Virus genome (UHGV): UHGV-0033333
Length of the DNA stretch: 41,497 nucleotides
Strand: one strand, 5' to 3'
From: a virus
Below the pieces are notes generated by a model. It was not told the DNA's origin and searched no databases. It saw only the letters and a program-made list of their open reading frames with translations. Every line of letters begins with the position of its first letter. Within the stretch, counting starts at the first letter, position 1. This document shows positions 8,715-38,610 of this stretch, piece by piece. The position numbers and the translations under genes were made by a program.

Positions 8715-9155
8715 ATGATACCAGTGGATCAGAAGGAAAACATTCAGGAAGAAAATGAAAAGAAAAAAGAATATCTCAGATCATATAGAAGATCGGTAAA
8801 AAGAGAGAAACAGATTCTGGCTGAGATTCAGAGATTACGTCAGGATAAGATGTTCCCTTCTATGGTCAATGATGGAATGCCACATGGTGGCAGCCAAACT
8901 GATTTATCAGATTACATAGTTGCTCTGGAACAACAGATTGAAGCACTCAAAAAAGAAAGACTGAGCAAAATAACTCATTACGGTGAAGTTGAAGAAAAGA
9001 TTAAAAAGATGAAGAATGAAGAAGAACAGATGGTTTTAAGGCTCAGATACATAAGAGGGTTAAAGTGGGAAGAGGTAGCACTGGAAATGGGATATGGCTG
9101 GACGCATATTCACAGGATACATGCATCTGCATTGAGAAATTTTAAGATGGAATAG
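8715..9155 (+). CDS. ArpU/RinA-like late-gene transcriptional activator (sigma-70 region-4-like HTH)
   Basis: C-terminal LRLRYIRGLKWEEVALEMGYGWTHIHRIHASALRNF. Position just upstream of the packaging module. Confidence 0.5.
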   Translation: MIPVDQKENIQEENEKKKEYLRSYRRSVKREKQILAEIQRLRQDKMFPSMVNDGMPHGGSQTDLSDYIVALEQQIEALKKERLSKITHYGEVEEKIKKMKNEEEQMVLRLRYIRGLKWEEVALEMGYGWTHIHRIHASALRNFKME

Positions 9156-9243
9156 AATGGTATACTGTGAGTATGATATTATTACGATGAACGAAATGGA
9201 TAAACCCATGCGTTTTCATTTTTTATAATAATCTCCTTAAGCA

Positions 9244-9275
9244 AAAAGACATCTGAAAAGAAGGTGTCTTTTTGT
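9244..9275 (+). terminator. Stem-loop plus T-run (AAAGACAtctgaaaagaaggTGTCTTTTTG)
   Basis: 7-bp stem followed by TTTTT, downstream of the regulator gene. Confidence 0.4.
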
Positions 9276-9287
9276 ATATAAAAACAC

Positions 9288-9316
9288 TTGACATATGGTA
9301 CACCATATGCTATTAT
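9288..9316 (+). promoter_or_regulatory. Consensus sigma-A promoter TTGACA-17-TATTAT with embedded palindrome CATATGGtacaCCATATG (9292-9309)
   Basis: Exact hexamers and spacing read from sequence. The 7-bp inverted repeat in the spacer is a likely regulator site. Confidence 0.5.
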
Positions 9317-9341
9317 ATATACATAAGGAGGTGAGATACAG

Positions 9342-9473
9342 ATGAGTAACAGAAACCGGAAACACCCGGAAAACAAAAAGCCCGATATCGACTGGAAGAG
9401 CTGGCTACTCGGAGCGATAACGGACTTGAGTATCGGAATCATCTTATTGATTCTCGATAAGCTATTAAATTAG
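9342..9473 (+). CDS. 43-aa membrane peptide (MSNRNRKHPENKKPDIDWKSWLLGAITDLSIGIILLILDKLLN)
   Basis: RBS AAGGAGGTG lies 8 nt before ATG. Basic N-terminus plus one TM helix. Followed by stem-loop GAGAGGGGCgaaaGCCCTTCTC (9475-9500). Confidence 0.4.
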   Translation: MSNRNRKHPENKKPDIDWKSWLLGAITDLSIGIILLILDKLLN

Positions 9474-9621
9474 CTGAGAGGGGCGAAAGCCCTTCTCTTA
9501 AACCAAATATAACACAATTGCTCATCTGTGTAAAGTATGCTGTGGAAACTGGGAATATTCTTCATTGCAATCGGACTGGCAAAGCTGGTATATTATCTTA
9601 TTCAGAAACGGAGGGATAACA

Positions 9622-9831
9622 ATGCCGACAGGTAAGCCGAAACCGCAGACAGTAGCATCACAGAAATACCAGGCAAAGGCTGGCTGGATATCGAAGAGCT
9701 ACAAGTTGAAGAAAGAGGTTGTGGAGGCTTATGCTGAAGCCTGCGAGGCAGCAGGAGTCAGCCAGGCAGGACAACTGATGAAGATGATGAAAGAGTTCGC
9801 AGACAATGTGAACAAAGAGCACTCGGAATAA
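9622..9831 (+). CDS. Hypothetical 69-aa protein
   Basis: RBS GGAGGGA precedes ATG 9622 (MPTGKPKPQTVASQKYQAKAGW...). Confidence 0.4.
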   Translation: MPTGKPKPQTVASQKYQAKAGWISKSYKLKKEVVEAYAEACEAAGVSQAGQLMKMMKEFADNVNKEHSE

Positions 9832-9867
9832 CCGGGTGCTTTTTGTATGCCTAAAGGAATGAAATAA

Positions 9868-10173
9868 ATGGATACAGAGACATTGAGTTGGATACAGCAG
9901 TTAATCAGAGACGATAACTTACATGAGTTCTACACATCGCCAGTCTGGCGAAGACTGCAGGCCAGGATTCTGAAAGATAATCATTATGAATGTGAGCGTT
10001 GCAGGAAAAAAGGCCTTGTGGTCAGGGCACGGACAGTGCATCACAGGAAATATCTGAGAAATTATCCGGAATTGGCATTAGATGTTGATAATCTCGAACC
10101 AATCTGTGAACGGTGTCATTACGATGAACATCACAGGAAAAAACCTGGATTCATGAACGAAGAACGGTGGTAG
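9868..10173 (+). CDS. HNH endonuclease (packaging-associated)
   Basis: CERC...HHRKYL...N...CERCH motif, immediately upstream of terS/terL. Confidence 0.8.
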   Translation: MDTETLSWIQQLIRDDNLHEFYTSPVWRRLQARILKDNHYECERCRKKGLVVRARTVHHRKYLRNYPELALDVDNLEPICERCHYDEHHRKKPGFMNEERW

Positions 10174-10282
10174 CCCCCCGGGTAAAAAATACGAAAAAAC
10201 TCTGGGGAACGTGTGACCGGTGAGGGGGTCGCATCCGGAGAAATTCTGAAAAATTCTGAGAAAGTTGAAAGAAGGTGGTAAA

Positions 10283-33089: not shown

Positions 33090-33137
33090 TTTGCGCCGGC
33101 GCAACAGAGGGGAGGTGAAATATTGAAAGAAATACTT

Positions 33138-33437
33138 ATGCAGACCTACACCATTGTCCTGCCTATAATCCTGGGGTATATCGTCTGGCTTCTGAAGAAC
33201 CAGAAAAAGGACCGGGACGCAAACAGCAAGGGAACCATGCTCCTGCTTCGTGTACAGCTGATCGAATATCACACAAAGTACATGAAAGAAGGGAGTATCC
33301 CATCGTATGCCTATGAGAACTTTAATGAGATGTACCAGGCATATCATGAGCTGGGCGGGAATAGTATGGTGACAAAAATGAAAAAAGAAATTGATGAATT
33401 GCATTTAAAGAAAAAGGAGAATGACCATGGATATTAA
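33138..33437 (+). CDS. N-terminally membrane-anchored protein preceding the holin
   Basis: One TM helix (IVLPIILGYIVWLL) then a soluble domain. Confidence 0.4.
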   Translation: MQTYTIVLPIILGYIVWLLKNQKKDRDANSKGTMLLLRVQLIEYHTKYMKEGSIPSYAYENFNEMYQAYHELGGNSMVTKMKKEIDELHLKKKENDHGY

Positions 33438-33759
33438 TGTAATGATGCAGTATGTAACCTATGGACTGGCACTGATCGGCGTGCTTGCCTTCCTGGTATC
33501 AGTTATTGTGCAGGTGATCAAAGAGATGCCGGGGCTTAAGAAAATCCCCACAAGTGTTGTGGCACTTGTTACATCATTGATCCTGTGCCCTGTAACGCTG
33601 GCGTTTCTGTGCGCATATTATAAAGTATCAATCACAGACTATTATATTTTTGCTTCTTTCGTTGCCGCATTTATTGTATATCTGGTTTCGACAGGCGGCT
33701 GGGAGAAGGTAAAATCCATCTGGGACAGAACAAAGTATAAAGATTCTGAGGGCGAGTGA
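33421..33759 (+). CDS. Holin (3 TM, charged C-terminus)
   Basis: TM segments at about residues 13-35, 44-66 and 75-97; C-terminus KVKSIWDRTKYKDSEGE. Directly upstream of the endolysin. Confidence 0.6.
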   Translation: MTMDINVMMQYVTYGLALIGVLAFLVSVIVQVIKEMPGLKKIPTSVVALVTSLILCPVTLAFLCAYYKVSITDYYIFASFVAAFIVYLVSTGGWEKVKSIWDRTKYKDSEGE

Positions 33760-33794
33760 TCGTCCTCTTTTTTTGATTCTTAGGAGGGATTCTC

Positions 33795-35216
33795 ATGGAA
33801 ATCAAAGGCATTGATGTTTCTGCATGGCAGAAAAAGATTGACTGGAAAAAAGTGGCGGCCTATGGAATGGATTTTGCCATTATCCGGATCACGGAAGCGG
33901 GAAATGTGATCGACCCGTATTTTGAAGCTAACTACAAAGGCTGCATGGAAAATAAAATTCCTGTTGGCGTGTACCGGTATTCTTATGCAATGAACATAGC
34001 GGAGATACAGAGTGAAGCAAGGAAAATCGTCAGCATTCTGAATGGACGGAAGATCCAGTATCCGGTGTTCCTGGACCTGGAATATAATTCACAGCGCCGC
34101 CTTGGGACTGAGAGTATCCACAAGATGGCTGAGGCTTTCCGGGAGATCATTGTGGCAGCAGGCTATGAATTCGGAATTTATTGCAATGTGGACTGGTATA
34201 ACACAGTGATCTGTTCTCATCTGAAAAAATATGATTTCTGGATCGCCCGCTATCCCGCTAATGACAAGGGAGTTCTGGTGGAACGGCTCCGGCCGGATTT
34301 CGGAATTGGCTGGCAGTACAGCGGTAAGGCCGTGATCCCGGGTATTTCCGGAAAAGTAGACAGGAATGTGTTTTATAAGGATTACAGCAAAACAGAACCG
34401 AAGAAGGAGGAAACTACGATGGATAAGTTAAAAGAATTCACAGACCTTGGGGATTATTATGCCGGTGAAACGACAGGTATCCCATATCTGGAAAAGAAAT
34501 CAGCGGCATATCTGGACGATTTCCAGAAGAATGCCGGTTACAAAAATTATACAAAATTTGCCCGTGATGTAAACTCCTGGGGACAGCCGGGGTGTCAGGG
34601 GCAGCCATGGTGTGCCGTATACCAGTTCTGGAAACTGGTAAAAGTATTTGGCCTTGCAAAAGCCCTCCAGATCATGGGCGGTGGTTTCTACAACTGCCAG
34701 AGTGTTACACGACATGCACAGACAAAAGGGACCTGGAAGAAAACACCGAAGAAAGGTGCACTGATCATCTTCCGGAACGGCGCACATATTGGTTCTGTGC
34801 GGAAATTTGACACTACTTACGTATACACCAACGAAGGAAATACTTCCAGTGCTTCCGGAGTGATCGCCAACGGTGGCTCCTGCAGGAATAAGAAGTACAA
34901 ACTGACTTCAAGAGACATTGACGGTTATGTATGGATTGATTATGGAACGGGAACAGATCAGAAATCTACAGAGACAGCGAAGACTCTGAGTAAGACACCG
35001 AATTGGGTAGGAAAAGTCACCGCAACAGAACTGAATGTCCGTTCCTGGGCGGGCAAAGAGAATCCAACCATCAAGAAGTGGCCGCTTCTGAAGAAAGGAA
35101 ATCTGGTGGACGTGTGTGACATCATTAAAGCCGCAAACGGATCCGGTTGGTACTATATCCGGATTGCCGGTAAGTACTATGGATTTGTAGCAGCAACGTA
35201 TATCAAAAAACAGTAA
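33795..35216 (+). CDS. Endolysin: GH25 muramidase + CHAP/NlpC-like domain + SH3b
   Basis: GIDVSAWQKKIDWKKV...FAIIRITEAG (GH25). QPWCAVYQ...GALIIFRNGAHIGSV (Cys/His). C-terminal WYYIRIAGKYYGFVAATYI (SH3b). Confidence 0.8.
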   Translation: MEIKGIDVSAWQKKIDWKKVAAYGMDFAIIRITEAGNVIDPYFEANYKGCMENKIPVGVYRYSYAMNIAEIQSEARKIVSILNGRKIQYPVFLDLEYNSQRRLGTESIHKMAEAFREIIVAAGYEFGIYCNVDWYNTVICSHLKKYDFWIARYPANDKGVLVERLRPDFGIGWQYSGKAVIPGISGKVDRNVFYKDYSKTEPKKEETTMDKLKEFTDLGDYYAGETTGIPYLEKKSAAYLDDFQKNAGYKNYTKFARDVNSWGQPGCQGQPWCAVYQFWKLVKVFGLAKALQIMGGGFYNCQSVTRHAQTKGTWKKTPKKGALIIFRNGAHIGSVRKFDTTYVYTNEGNTSSASGVIANGGSCRNKKYKLTSRDIDGYVWIDYGTGTDQKSTETAKTLSKTPNWVGKVTATELNVRSWAGKENPTIKKWPLLKKGNLVDVCDIIKAANGSGWYYIRIAGKYYGFVAATYIKKQ

Positions 35217-37249: not shown

Positions 37250-37334
37250 CCTAAGTAACAAGATGGGCGGCGTATCCATCATCTCAGGTACTCTTGCGAG
37301 TGTGTCGGGAGCCTTTCCGACCTTTGTTACTTAG
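37250..37334 (-). other. 85-nt structured element: 11/12-bp closing stem (CCTAAGTAACAA / TTGTTACTTAG) enclosing internal hairpins
   Basis: Inner hairpin GTCGGgagcctttCCGAC; starts right after the stop of ORF 37338..37520. Confidence 0.35.
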
Positions 37335-37337
37335 ATA

Positions 37338-37758
37338 TTAATCTATGCCATCATTATAAGAAAATATTCTCTGTTTGTCAAATTTTTTTAACCGACCATT
37401 TTCTATTCCATGCTGTAGTTTTCCGGGCGTAATAGTGTGTAGAGTGGCAACGTAGAGATAATCTGCGGCTATGTCAAGCTTTATTCCTATTTGTACATTT
37501 TCACTCATTATCTTAACCAATTCAAAAACTTGTTCCTTTTTCGTTTGGATTCACACCGATATAATCGGGATCTTCAACAATAGAAGACAGAAAAGATAAA
37601 TACGGGAGACATTCAGGGTGTCTTTTCTCAATGTGCTTCTGCAAACCTTCTGACTGATAAATGAAATCATGATTCAAAGGCGTTGGAAGATAATTATTAA
37701 ATTGTGGATTGAATGGAGCGGCTATAAATACTTTTGATTTCATTTTTATTCCCAGCAA
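37338..37758 (-). pseudogene. Two adjacent small ORFs (78 aa and 60 aa) offset by 1 nt: possible frameshifted single gene or recoding site
   Basis: TGA at 37522-37524 is followed by in-line ORF 37338..37520, which starts only at TTG with no RBS. Upstream part contains HIEKRHPE. Confidence 0.25.
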
Positions 37759-38196: not shown

Positions 38197-38610
38197 CTAC
38201 TCTTTGTATTTCTTAGGAGTGTACTTTTCTTTGTTAATGATCTTTAATCTCTTTAAAGCAATTTCCAGTTCATCACGGAAGAGCTCTGCAGCTTCCGGAC
38301 TCAATTCCTCACCATTATAACTTGCAGGTCCATCTTCGCCAGAGGTGAGCTTTTCCATGATGTTGTCCAGATCTTTTGAAATATCTTTATTATCTTTTTC
38401 AGATAAACCGTCTGCGTCAATTCCTTTTAATAGGTAATCAGTACTCACATCAAAATAGTTTGCAATTAACAAGAGTTTTTCTGCGCTTGGATTAGGATTC
38501 GATTTCCATTTTGAAATAGTACCCTTTCCAAACCCTAATTCTTTTTCTAAATCGGATTGGTTGATTCCTTTTTTATCACAAAGAGAGATTACTCTGTTGA
38601 ATAAATTCAT
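38197..38610 (-). CDS. XRE-family HTH repressor (ImmR/CI-like)
   Basis: N-terminal HTH (QSDLEKELGFGKGTISKWKSN); acidic linker; divergent from cro. Confidence 0.8.
   Translation of the reverse strand: MNLFNRVISLCDKKGINQSDLEKELGFGKGTISKWKSNPNPSAEKLLLIANYFDVSTDYLLKGIDADGLSEKDNKDISKDLDNIMEKLTSGEDGPASYNGEELSPEAAELFRDELEIALKRLKIINKEKYTPKKYKE

Follow-up and report, generated by a model that had tools for sequence, protein, structure and literature searches.

A putative toxin–antitoxin-like cassette of two small membrane peptides and a regulator in temperate gut phages

The viral genome UHGV-0033333, a stretch of 41,497 nucleotides (nt) called the window throughout, belongs to a temperate siphophage or prophage, in which a tyrosine integrase, an ImmA/XRE immunity pair and a GH25+CHAP endolysin are recognised. 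Positions 9288–9844 read as one three-gene transcription unit, referred to here as the cassette, which comprises a promoter with its operator, the gene of a 43-amino-acid (aa) peptide (pep1), a hairpin, the gene of a 32-aa peptide (pep2), a regulator gene and a terminator. The first gene appears to be silenced in the style of a toxin gene by three controls: the operator, a helix in the mRNA that pairs the start codon, and a convergent antisense promoter. We propose that the cassette may be a new toxin–antitoxin-like module, in which RNA controls of type I would be combined with a dedicated protein autorepressor. We judge this proposal to be about evenly balanced between right and wrong.

The transcription unit, its operator and its regulator

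The promoter of the cassette (P_op) matches the sigma-A consensus at 11 of 12 positions, the sole match of this quality in the 5.5 kb scanned, and its transcription start is predicted at about 9323. Its spacer is filled by a perfect palindrome (Table 1). Taken alone, neither element is strongly beyond chance: the window holds five promoters of at least 11/12 (1.4 expected) and seven distinct perfect palindromes with 8-bp arms (3.3 in shuffled sequences). The feature is considered real because promoter and palindrome coincide and because the pair is conserved, being identical in 69 viral contigs found by an exact-pattern scan; the consensus promoter with an embedded operator that a previous, sequence-only reading of the window had described is thereby confirmed. 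The dyad occurs once in the window. A role as a multi-copy operator of a CI repressor or of a host regulon was rejected, since the dyad is single here and is found once per locus in 17 of 17 representative genomes. With a relaxed dyad, the promoter scaffold is present in at least 120 viral contigs, and the spacers of these relatives carry other dyads at the same position or, in one class, direct repeats. The half-sites of other phages' dyads change together (CATAAGGT..ACCTTATG and CATATCGT..ACGATATG, both symmetric double substitutions) and so suggest a symmetric protein as the ligand.

The sequence-only reading had asked which phage protein binds the dyad; co-variation of operator and regulator makes the product of the third gene of the cassette the likely candidate. 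The class of the operator agrees with the class of the regulator in 62 of 65 distinct cassettes. Operators of the form CATATGGT-(T/A)A-ACCATATG accompany the regulator motif ..TKGFK.. (18/18), those of the form CATATGGT-(GC/AC/GT)-ACCATATG accompany ..SKSYK.. (33/33), and CATACGTA(T/C)ACGTAT(A/G)TG accompanies ..RPQDKWD..KTYK(V/I)N.. (11/14). Between operator and regulator, the pep1 types are shuffled over all three operator classes. From this co-variation we infer that the 69-aa product of the third gene is the operator-binding autorepressor of P_op. The protein resembles phrog_3887, annotated 'transcriptional regulator', and has a homolog in gp58 of phage phiRgPS_6, annotated as a ribbon-helix-helix (RHH) protein. 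A homolog is located 3' in every related locus with enough sequence. The family contains at least 346 clusters, with recorded homologs in Blautia, Sellimonas and Mediterraneibacter. The exact protein is found on 17 contigs, and the four examined are ENA metagenome assemblies, one of them labelled as a Hadza sample.

Mixed cassettes also occur. L083, three further loci of like combination and L128 join a CATACGTATACGTAT operator to the regulator class that usually accompanies CATATGGT-TA-ACCATATG. They appear to be recombinants, and may be de-repressed or may point to another binding protein. The identical scaffold with other operators is found in front of HicA+HicB(RHH) pairs and of peptide–hairpin–peptide cassettes that end in an XRE regulator. 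The HicA–HicB(RHH) operons share the promoter and the 5' untranslated region (5' UTR), TTGACA-17-TATTATATA-4-TAAGGAGGT, and have operators of their own, either AATATAATTATAT (L091, L107, L110, L112, L124 and L125) or AATGTGTA repeats (L073, L104 and L115). In L091 the HicAB module sits between the tail genes and the holin and endolysin genes. As the HicAB versions are located elsewhere in the genome, the scaffold promoter is argued to belong to the module and not to be a late promoter.

The elements listed by the sequence-only reading (hairpin, promoter, dyad, ribosome-binding site, 43-aa open reading frame (ORF) and GAAA-looped stem) are all in place. It had, however, closed the unit as a single-gene mini-cassette at 9500, and the unit is instead predicted to run on through pep2 and the regulator gene to the terminator at its 3' end. 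All 51 distinct cassettes have the GAAA-looped hairpin behind pep1 (mean −19.6 kcal/mol), and in 46 of the 51 G·U pairs make the plus strand the stabler one. The stem is not a terminator: there is no U-tract on either strand, and the tail, TTAAACCA in the window, is A-rich in all 51. Transcription should therefore continue through pep2 and the 69-aa gene; in 40 of the 51 distinct cassettes the regulator gene has a stem and a T-run behind it. No plus-strand promoter for pep2 and the regulator was found between the hairpin and pep2, where scores are at background. A promoter-like sequence (TTGCAA-18-TATATT with TG) is located inside pep2 (9565–9594, plus strand) and could yield regulator-only transcripts; checked by eye in one relative, L012, it has no clear counterpart.

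On the 5' side, the hairpin of the upstream terminator with its flanking A/T runs has a stability of about −18 kcal/mol; a terminator-like hairpin had been read here before, and both the stem and the T5 run bear this out. The element is probably bidirectional because an A-run and a T-run flank the stem. It is a candidate both for ending the late-regulator transcript and for stopping the predicted antisense RNA described below. Similar A-run/stem/T-run terminators precede the promoter in many relatives, though not in all.

Table 1. Sequence features of the cassette (window coordinates; SD, Shine–Dalgarno sequence)
Feature	Position	Strand	Description
Upstream terminator	9241–9275	+	core stem 9248–9254/9262–9268, then TTTTT 9269–9273
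P_op, near-consensus sigma-A promoter	9288–9316	+	TTGACA 9288–9293, 17 nt, TATTAT 9311–9316; TG 9308–9309
Operator dyad	9292–9309		CATATGGT-AC-ACCATATG, perfect 8-2-8 palindrome filling the promoter spacer
pep1 SD	9325–9334	+	AAGGAGGTGA; anti-SD duplex about −15 kcal/mol
Long-range helix, 5' strand	9336–9349	+	holds pep1 AUG 9342–9344
pep1, 43-aa peptide	9342–9473	+	basic N-terminus, C-terminal transmembrane segment
GAAA-looped hairpin	9476–9497	+	GC-rich, 9-bp stem directly after the pep1 stop codon
P_as, predicted convergent antisense promoter	9506–9534	−	−35 TTTACA 9534–9529, 17 nt, TG-n-TATATT (−10 9511–9506)
Long-range helix, 3' strand (anti-start element)	9518–9531	+	UUGCUCAUCUGUGU; ends 5 nt 5' of pep2 AUG
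pep2, 32-aa single-transmembrane peptide	9537–9635	+	no SD of its own; 3' end overlaps the regulator gene start
Putative RHH gene, 69 aa	9622–9831	+	SD GGAGGG 9610–9615; phrog_3887, E = 1.8e-4
Intrinsic terminator	9818–9844	+	AGCACTCGG-AATAA-CCGGGTGCT, then T-run; regulator stop codon in the loop

The membrane peptides and the RNA-level controls

Judged by substitution patterns, pep1 and pep2 are real coding genes under purifying selection: the differences among pep1 sequences are 726 synonymous and 232 non-synonymous, and those among pep2 sequences 466 and 57. The 43-aa membrane-peptide ORF of the sequence-only reading is thus genuine, as is the strong ribosome-binding site claimed for it. 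The Kyte–Doolittle maximum of pep1 over 19 residues is 2.08, and the six other variant types tested all reach at least 1.7. A peptide of 36–47 aa follows the promoter in every contig with enough sequence, so that the comparative search suggested by the sequence-only reading has shown the peptide to be conserved in relatives. The pep1 family consists of at least 299 clusters at 90% identity, mostly of 36–47 aa, with at least six divergent sequence types that share a Lys/Arg-rich N-terminus and a hydrophobic C-terminus. These clusters have no family assignment, and those with a name are called only 'hypothetical protein'; in PHROGs, pep1 gives only a marginal match (E = 0.098). Being hydrophobic and shorter than 60 aa, pep1 resembles the small membrane peptides of type I systems. 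No homology of pep1, pep2 or the regulator to HicA/HicB or to other toxin–antitoxin families was found.

In L029 (10880–11060), pep1 is frameshifted in a poly-A tract of Lys codons, giving a 60-aa read-through product; the A-runs that code for the N-terminal lysines could be slippery. The public gene calls of L153–L156 include pep1 (43 aa) and never pep2 (32 aa), and the phiRgPS_6 record annotates neither.

The window RNA from 9323 to 9545 is predicted to fold at −76.2 kcal/mol (z = −6.7), with a closing helix that buries the pep1 AUG; the phiRgPS_6 RNA folds with an equivalent helix. When 67 distinct RNAs are folded without constraint, 61 have all three bases of the start codon paired with the 32 nt that precede the pep2 AUG. 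The start codon has a mean pairing probability of 0.93, and the pep1 SD, at 0.32, is mostly unpaired. RNAalifold gave no structure on a plain MAFFT alignment of whole cassettes, because indels misaligned the motif region, and this alignment was replaced by anchored alignments and folding of each sequence. In the anchored alignment 76% of the helix cells are paired, against 26–42% in slid registers, and the helix has compensatory changes (G-C to A-U at position −1, A-U to G-C at position +4). The anti-start element varies together with the start context of pep1 (AUGAGC, AUGGG, AAUG and UUGAGGGA). The duplex with its own partner reaches −14.9 kcal/mol, compared with −9.8 kcal/mol for other start-context classes and −5.5 kcal/mol for shuffled sequences. 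Matching anti-start elements are also borne by UUG-start cassettes of unrelated sequence. By predicted fold, the mRNA therefore contains a cis element that sequesters the translation start, as toxin mRNAs do.

The helix starts 2–7 nt after GGAGG and ends 3–8 nt before the pep2 AUG; in the window, the pep1 SD lies 3–4 nt from one end and the pep2 AUG 4–5 nt from the other. The anti-SD duplex of pep2 averages −0.9 kcal/mol in the 49 helix-bearing cassettes, against −15 kcal/mol for pep1, and the only two cassettes without the helix (L090 and the second cassette of L080) are also alone in having an SD for pep2. Since pep2 lacks an SD where the helix exists, and the helix abuts the pep2 AUG, translation of pep2 would seem to be tied to the helix in some way. 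A model in which the closed helix is a translational toggle, with the pep1 SD serving the SD-less pep2 AUG and the open form making pep1, is conceivable, and we regard it as doubtful. The inverted repeat formed by start and anti-start elements was also considered as a pair of recombinase sites bounding an invertible segment. This was rejected, the orientation of pep1 being constant in all readable cassettes of the 69 viral contigs; the recurrent G·U pairs likewise favour pairing of plus-strand RNA over an invertible segment.

The third control is a predicted minus-strand promoter (P_as) between pep1 and pep2, which scores 10/12 and has the extended TG. All 46 distinct cassettes have, at this place, a minus-strand promoter with a spacer of exactly 17 nt, of which at least four versions occur (TTTACA/TATATT, TTTTCA/TATAAT, TAGACA/TAAAAT and TTGCAA/TATTTT). 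T1, A2 and T6 of the −10 hexamer, in minus-strand reading, are invariant. The plus strand at this site scores at background, and 1.8% of shuffles equal the minus-strand score. Transcription is predicted to begin at about 9499, where the hairpin has its base, and the RNA would hence cross pep1 in antisense; candidate stops are a hairpin formed by the dyad and the upstream A-run/stem/T-run terminator. The suspicion of the sequence-only reading that the product is tightly repressed and potentially toxic is strengthened by this conserved convergent promoter and by the start-sequestering helix, both of which it had missed.

Genomic position and distribution

The gene 5' of the cassette (8715–9155) encodes a sigma-70 region 4/DUF1492 (RinA/ArpU-like) late regulator, and the regulator gene of the cassette is followed by HNH, TerS and TerL genes in that order, which agrees with the placement between late regulator and packaging genes given by the sequence-only reading. 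From the cassette terminator to the HNH start codon there are only about 23 nt. That reading had also held the cassette to be no part of any recognizable phage module. It is not a stray insertion: in otherwise very divergent phages it occupies a fixed site before the HNH/terminase genes. At all viral and genomic loci with readable flanks the cassette is 5' of packaging (HNH/terminase-like) genes, although the flanking HNH and TerL proteins are merely 23–42% identical across loci; this survey of position covered phages that carry the cassette. The late-regulator gene lies directly 5' in the window and in those relatives where it was identified.

The promoter and dyad occur in 17 Lachnospiraceae species, once per locus. 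At all 17 genomic loci the downstream ORFs fit a packaging module, and each of the 13 loci with enough downstream sequence has an ORF of the size of the large terminase subunit; orphan cassettes in prophage remnants were not seen among the 17. The prophage hosts are Blautia, Mediterraneibacter, Faecalimonas and other abundant human-gut Lachnospiraceae. In Ruminococcus phage phiRgPS_6 and in a faecal phage contig, promoter, dyad and 5' UTR are as in the window; behind them come a peptide without annotation, a GC hairpin, a second small ORF with a transmembrane segment and a gene annotated RHH. No description of the cassette was found in the literature searched, and the phiRgPS_6 paper (PMC10072058) does not discuss it.

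Several neighbouring features of the window were noted. Between 9153 and 9240, directly after the stop codon of the RinA/ArpU-like gene, there is a conserved extended −10 (TG 9173–9174, TATTAT 9176–9181) with a poor −35, common to loci L012, L014, L020 and L062. It is a late-promoter candidate, whose transcript would enter the 9241–9275 terminator and then the cassette. The HNH–TerS intergenic region (10174–10282) starts with CCCCCCGGG, and the phiRgPS_6 record has a C-rich run (CCCCCCTCCC) near its end; the region is a candidate for cos, in which case no more than about 0.9 kb would lie between the cassette and the right genome end. Farther away, a skipping-rope RNA (Rfam RF02924, 74 bits against a gathering score of 36.7) adjoins the integrase gene at 37254–37331 on the minus strand, with a perfect 12/12 promoter (TTGACA-17-TATAAT, −35 beginning at 37381) just upstream on the same strand. 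A further perfect 12/12 sigma-A promoter (38644, plus strand) lies just past the start of the minus-strand XRE/CI-like repressor gene (38197–38610) and is directed away from that gene; in the genetic switch it would probably serve as the early lytic promoter.

Function of the cassette and comparison with known systems

In the proposed toxin–antitoxin-like module, the near-consensus P_op would be constitutive unless the dyad observed to fill its spacer is occupied. The 69-aa product would bind the dyad as a symmetric oligomer and repress its own operon, as its co-variation with the operator suggests; HicB is a precedent for a regulator that represses its own operon. In full-length mRNA the pep1 AUG would pair with a segment 45 nt past the pep1 stop codon, which would block translation and leave the SD free. 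The convergent promoter between pep1 and pep2 would send an antisense RNA from the base of the 3' hairpin back over pep1. With three controls on it, pep1 would be made only when they fail or are overridden, for example when the regulator or the antisense RNA is lost after a block of transcription, on infection by another phage, on loss of the prophage, or under massive late-lytic read-through, and would then damage or depolarise the membrane. pep2 would be its partner or antidote.

A number of observations weigh against this proposal, which is built on sequence and fold prediction. Neither peptide has a significant match in Pfam, NCBIfam or PADLOC, and an Rfam scan of 9150–9900 gave no family even at E = 1. 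The positive charge of pep1 is N-terminal, which is atypical for type I toxins. For the 69-aa protein, membership of the RHH superfamily was taken to require significant similarity to RHH proteins in profile or structure, besides an N-terminal β-strand followed by two helices with a G-x-S/T turn. Its AlphaFold2 monomer is all-helical with a pLDDT (predicted local distance difference test score) of 63 and does not confirm the RHH fold, and no significant Pfam, PDB sequence or profile match was found for it; Pfam RHH_5 matches 1 of 36 regulator homologs, weakly (E = 0.03), and hhalign against CopG gives the expected register, yet a probability of only 0.8%. Three distinct cassettes pair the CATACGTA operator with the 'wrong' regulator class. 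The predicted antisense RNA has candidate 3' ends only. The fixed site ahead of the packaging genes is unlike the sporadic occurrence of typical toxin–antitoxin modules or morons, and hints at a role in phage development.

This fixed site, together with the conserved extended −10, keeps two other readings in contention. In the one, the regulation would be the same and the peptides would be benign accessory membrane proteins, acting in superinfection exclusion or in an 'entry pulse'. The cassette is next to the HNH gene and presumed cos and is transcribed towards cos in every readable locus; within about 0.9 kb of the predicted right cos end, it would enter the cell first, its unrepressed promoter would fire, and self-repression would follow. 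Negative autoregulation of a host-type consensus promoter would produce just such a quick, self-limiting burst, the flanking terminators insulate the unit, and P22 Pant-arc-sar-ant offers a parallel to the strong promoter, the putative RHH autorepressor and the predicted convergent antisense promoter between cistrons. If the product were needed quickly, however, its start would not be expected to be sequestered (as in 61 of the 67 RNAs) and to face an antisense promoter. The cos position and the polarity of injection are taken over from HK97 and lambda-type phages, and the phiRgPS_6 paper (PMC10072058) gives no terminus data. Family searches found no likeness of pep1 or pep2 to known exclusion proteins. 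We consider this reading rather unlikely.

In the other, the cassette would serve late-gene or lysis control: the promoter, or late read-through, would feed the HNH–terminase–structural operon, and the peptides would be the first late proteins, such as holin modulators or membrane anchors. The location fits, directly before HNH/TerS/TerL and directly after the late regulator where this is identified; the short gap between terminator and HNH leaves no room for a separate promoter, and late transcripts probably traverse the cassette, as the conserved extended −10 sits after the late-regulator gene. We nevertheless hold this to be unlikely. The same scaffold drives HicAB at another site, perfect −35 and −10 hexamers require no activator, terminators flank the unit, and the operator pairs with the cassette's own regulator. 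The lysis-timing role offered by the sequence-only reading gained no positive support, and the window has its own holin-like genes and endolysin at 33123–35216. A simpler type I locus, with only the peptide and its antisense RNA (about 9229–9535) and with pep2 and the RHH gene as unrelated neighbours, would account for the small hydrophobic peptide, the convergent downstream promoter and the translation-blocking fold, which are hallmarks of type I. It is very improbable: pep1 and pep2 are not separated by a terminator, the anti-start element lies next to the pep2 AUG, an SD is missing from pep2 in just those cassettes that have the helix, and a putative DNA-binding gene that co-varies with the operator always follows.

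The cassette is common and entirely unannotated, and pep2 is missed by gene callers. If pep1 is a toxin, the cassette would be a new family in which one operon is under both RNA-level (type I) and protein-repressor (type II-like) control, and a candidate for prophage addiction or abortive infection in gut bacteria. If the toggle is true, toggle, antisense promoter and repressor would form a new class of three-component toxin–antitoxin or decision module at the early/late boundary of gut phages. The start-codon helix with its SD-less second cistron offers a directly testable case of structure-coupled translation, and the co-varying sets of operator and regulator are a natural collection of orthogonal repressor–promoter pairs on one promoter scaffold. 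These readings can be tested, since a cultivable phage–host pair with the cassette exists (phiRgPS_6 on R. gnavus JCM 6515, PMC10072058).

Membrane type I toxins are shorter than 60 aa, hydrophobic and controlled by sequestering mRNA elements (PMC8309996), and pep1 agrees with them in size, hydrophobicity and mRNA fold. Their positive charge is C-terminal in most known cases; in HokB it is N-terminal and located in the cytoplasm (PMC8309996). In Firmicutes, type I loci that are carried by prophages and have a convergent antisense RNA with 3' overlap (bsrG/SR4 of SPbeta, txpA/RatA and yonT/SR6) combine a membrane peptide of less than 60 aa, a promoter downstream of the toxin gene that fires back over its 3' end, and translation limited by mRNA structure (PMC8309996); the predicted layout of the cassette is alike. 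The cassette differs from them in having no sequence or Rfam similarity, an N-terminal charge and a C-terminal transmembrane segment; its antisense RNA is predicted only, and it adds an operator, a putative protein autorepressor and a second membrane peptide. In fold-back inhibition (fbi) of hok/sok and in AapA1/IsoA1, long-distance 5'–3' pairing hides the translation start of the toxin mRNA in the full-length transcript. The predicted fold of the cassette is alike in its 5'–3' pairing, and HokB shares the N-terminal positive charge with pep1. Unlike these systems, the cassette would pair the start codon itself and leave the SD free, its 3' partner lies before a second cistron and not at the mRNA end, no leader frame of the mok kind is present, and the hosts are Gram-positive.

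Gene order relates the cassette to type II HicAB operons and to omega–epsilon–zeta, a system of three components, in which a toxin-like gene comes first, a DNA-binding (RHH) gene last and a palindromic operator lies in the own promoter; the HicA–HicB cassettes of related phages use the very same promoter and 5' UTR scaffold with their own operators. However, pep1 and pep2 are membrane peptides and not HicA or zeta, RNA-level controls are added, and the HicAB versions are located elsewhere in the genome. In the immI region of P22, which lies outside the main immunity region, the strong Pant promoter is repressed by an RHH protein of the same operon, and an intercistronic convergent promoter makes the sar antisense RNA. 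The unrepressed promoter fires at once and is then shut off by its own repressor. The cassette resembles immI (Pant-arc-ant, sar) in its strong promoter under putative RHH repression and its predicted intercistronic convergent antisense promoter. It would yield membrane peptides instead of an antirepressor, its putative RHH gene is last and not first, and its antisense RNA would be aimed at the upstream cistron.

As in morons (HK97 gp15, lambda bor/lom, stx downstream of Q), an autonomous promoter–gene–terminator unit lies at the late operon and would be expressible from the prophage, the cassette having its own promoter (9288–9316), its own terminator (9818–9844) and the upstream terminator. 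Morons are sporadic, whereas neither sporadic presence nor variable position was seen among the loci with readable flanks, and the cassette has kept its site, and an elaborate internal control circuit that is conserved, in phages that diverge widely. The split ribosome-binding sites of T4 genes 38 and 25 resemble the suggested toggle in that RNA structure would bring a distant SD near a start codon; in the cassette, on fold prediction, the bridged domain would be about 180 nt long, contain a whole cistron and hold that cistron's own AUG in the stem.

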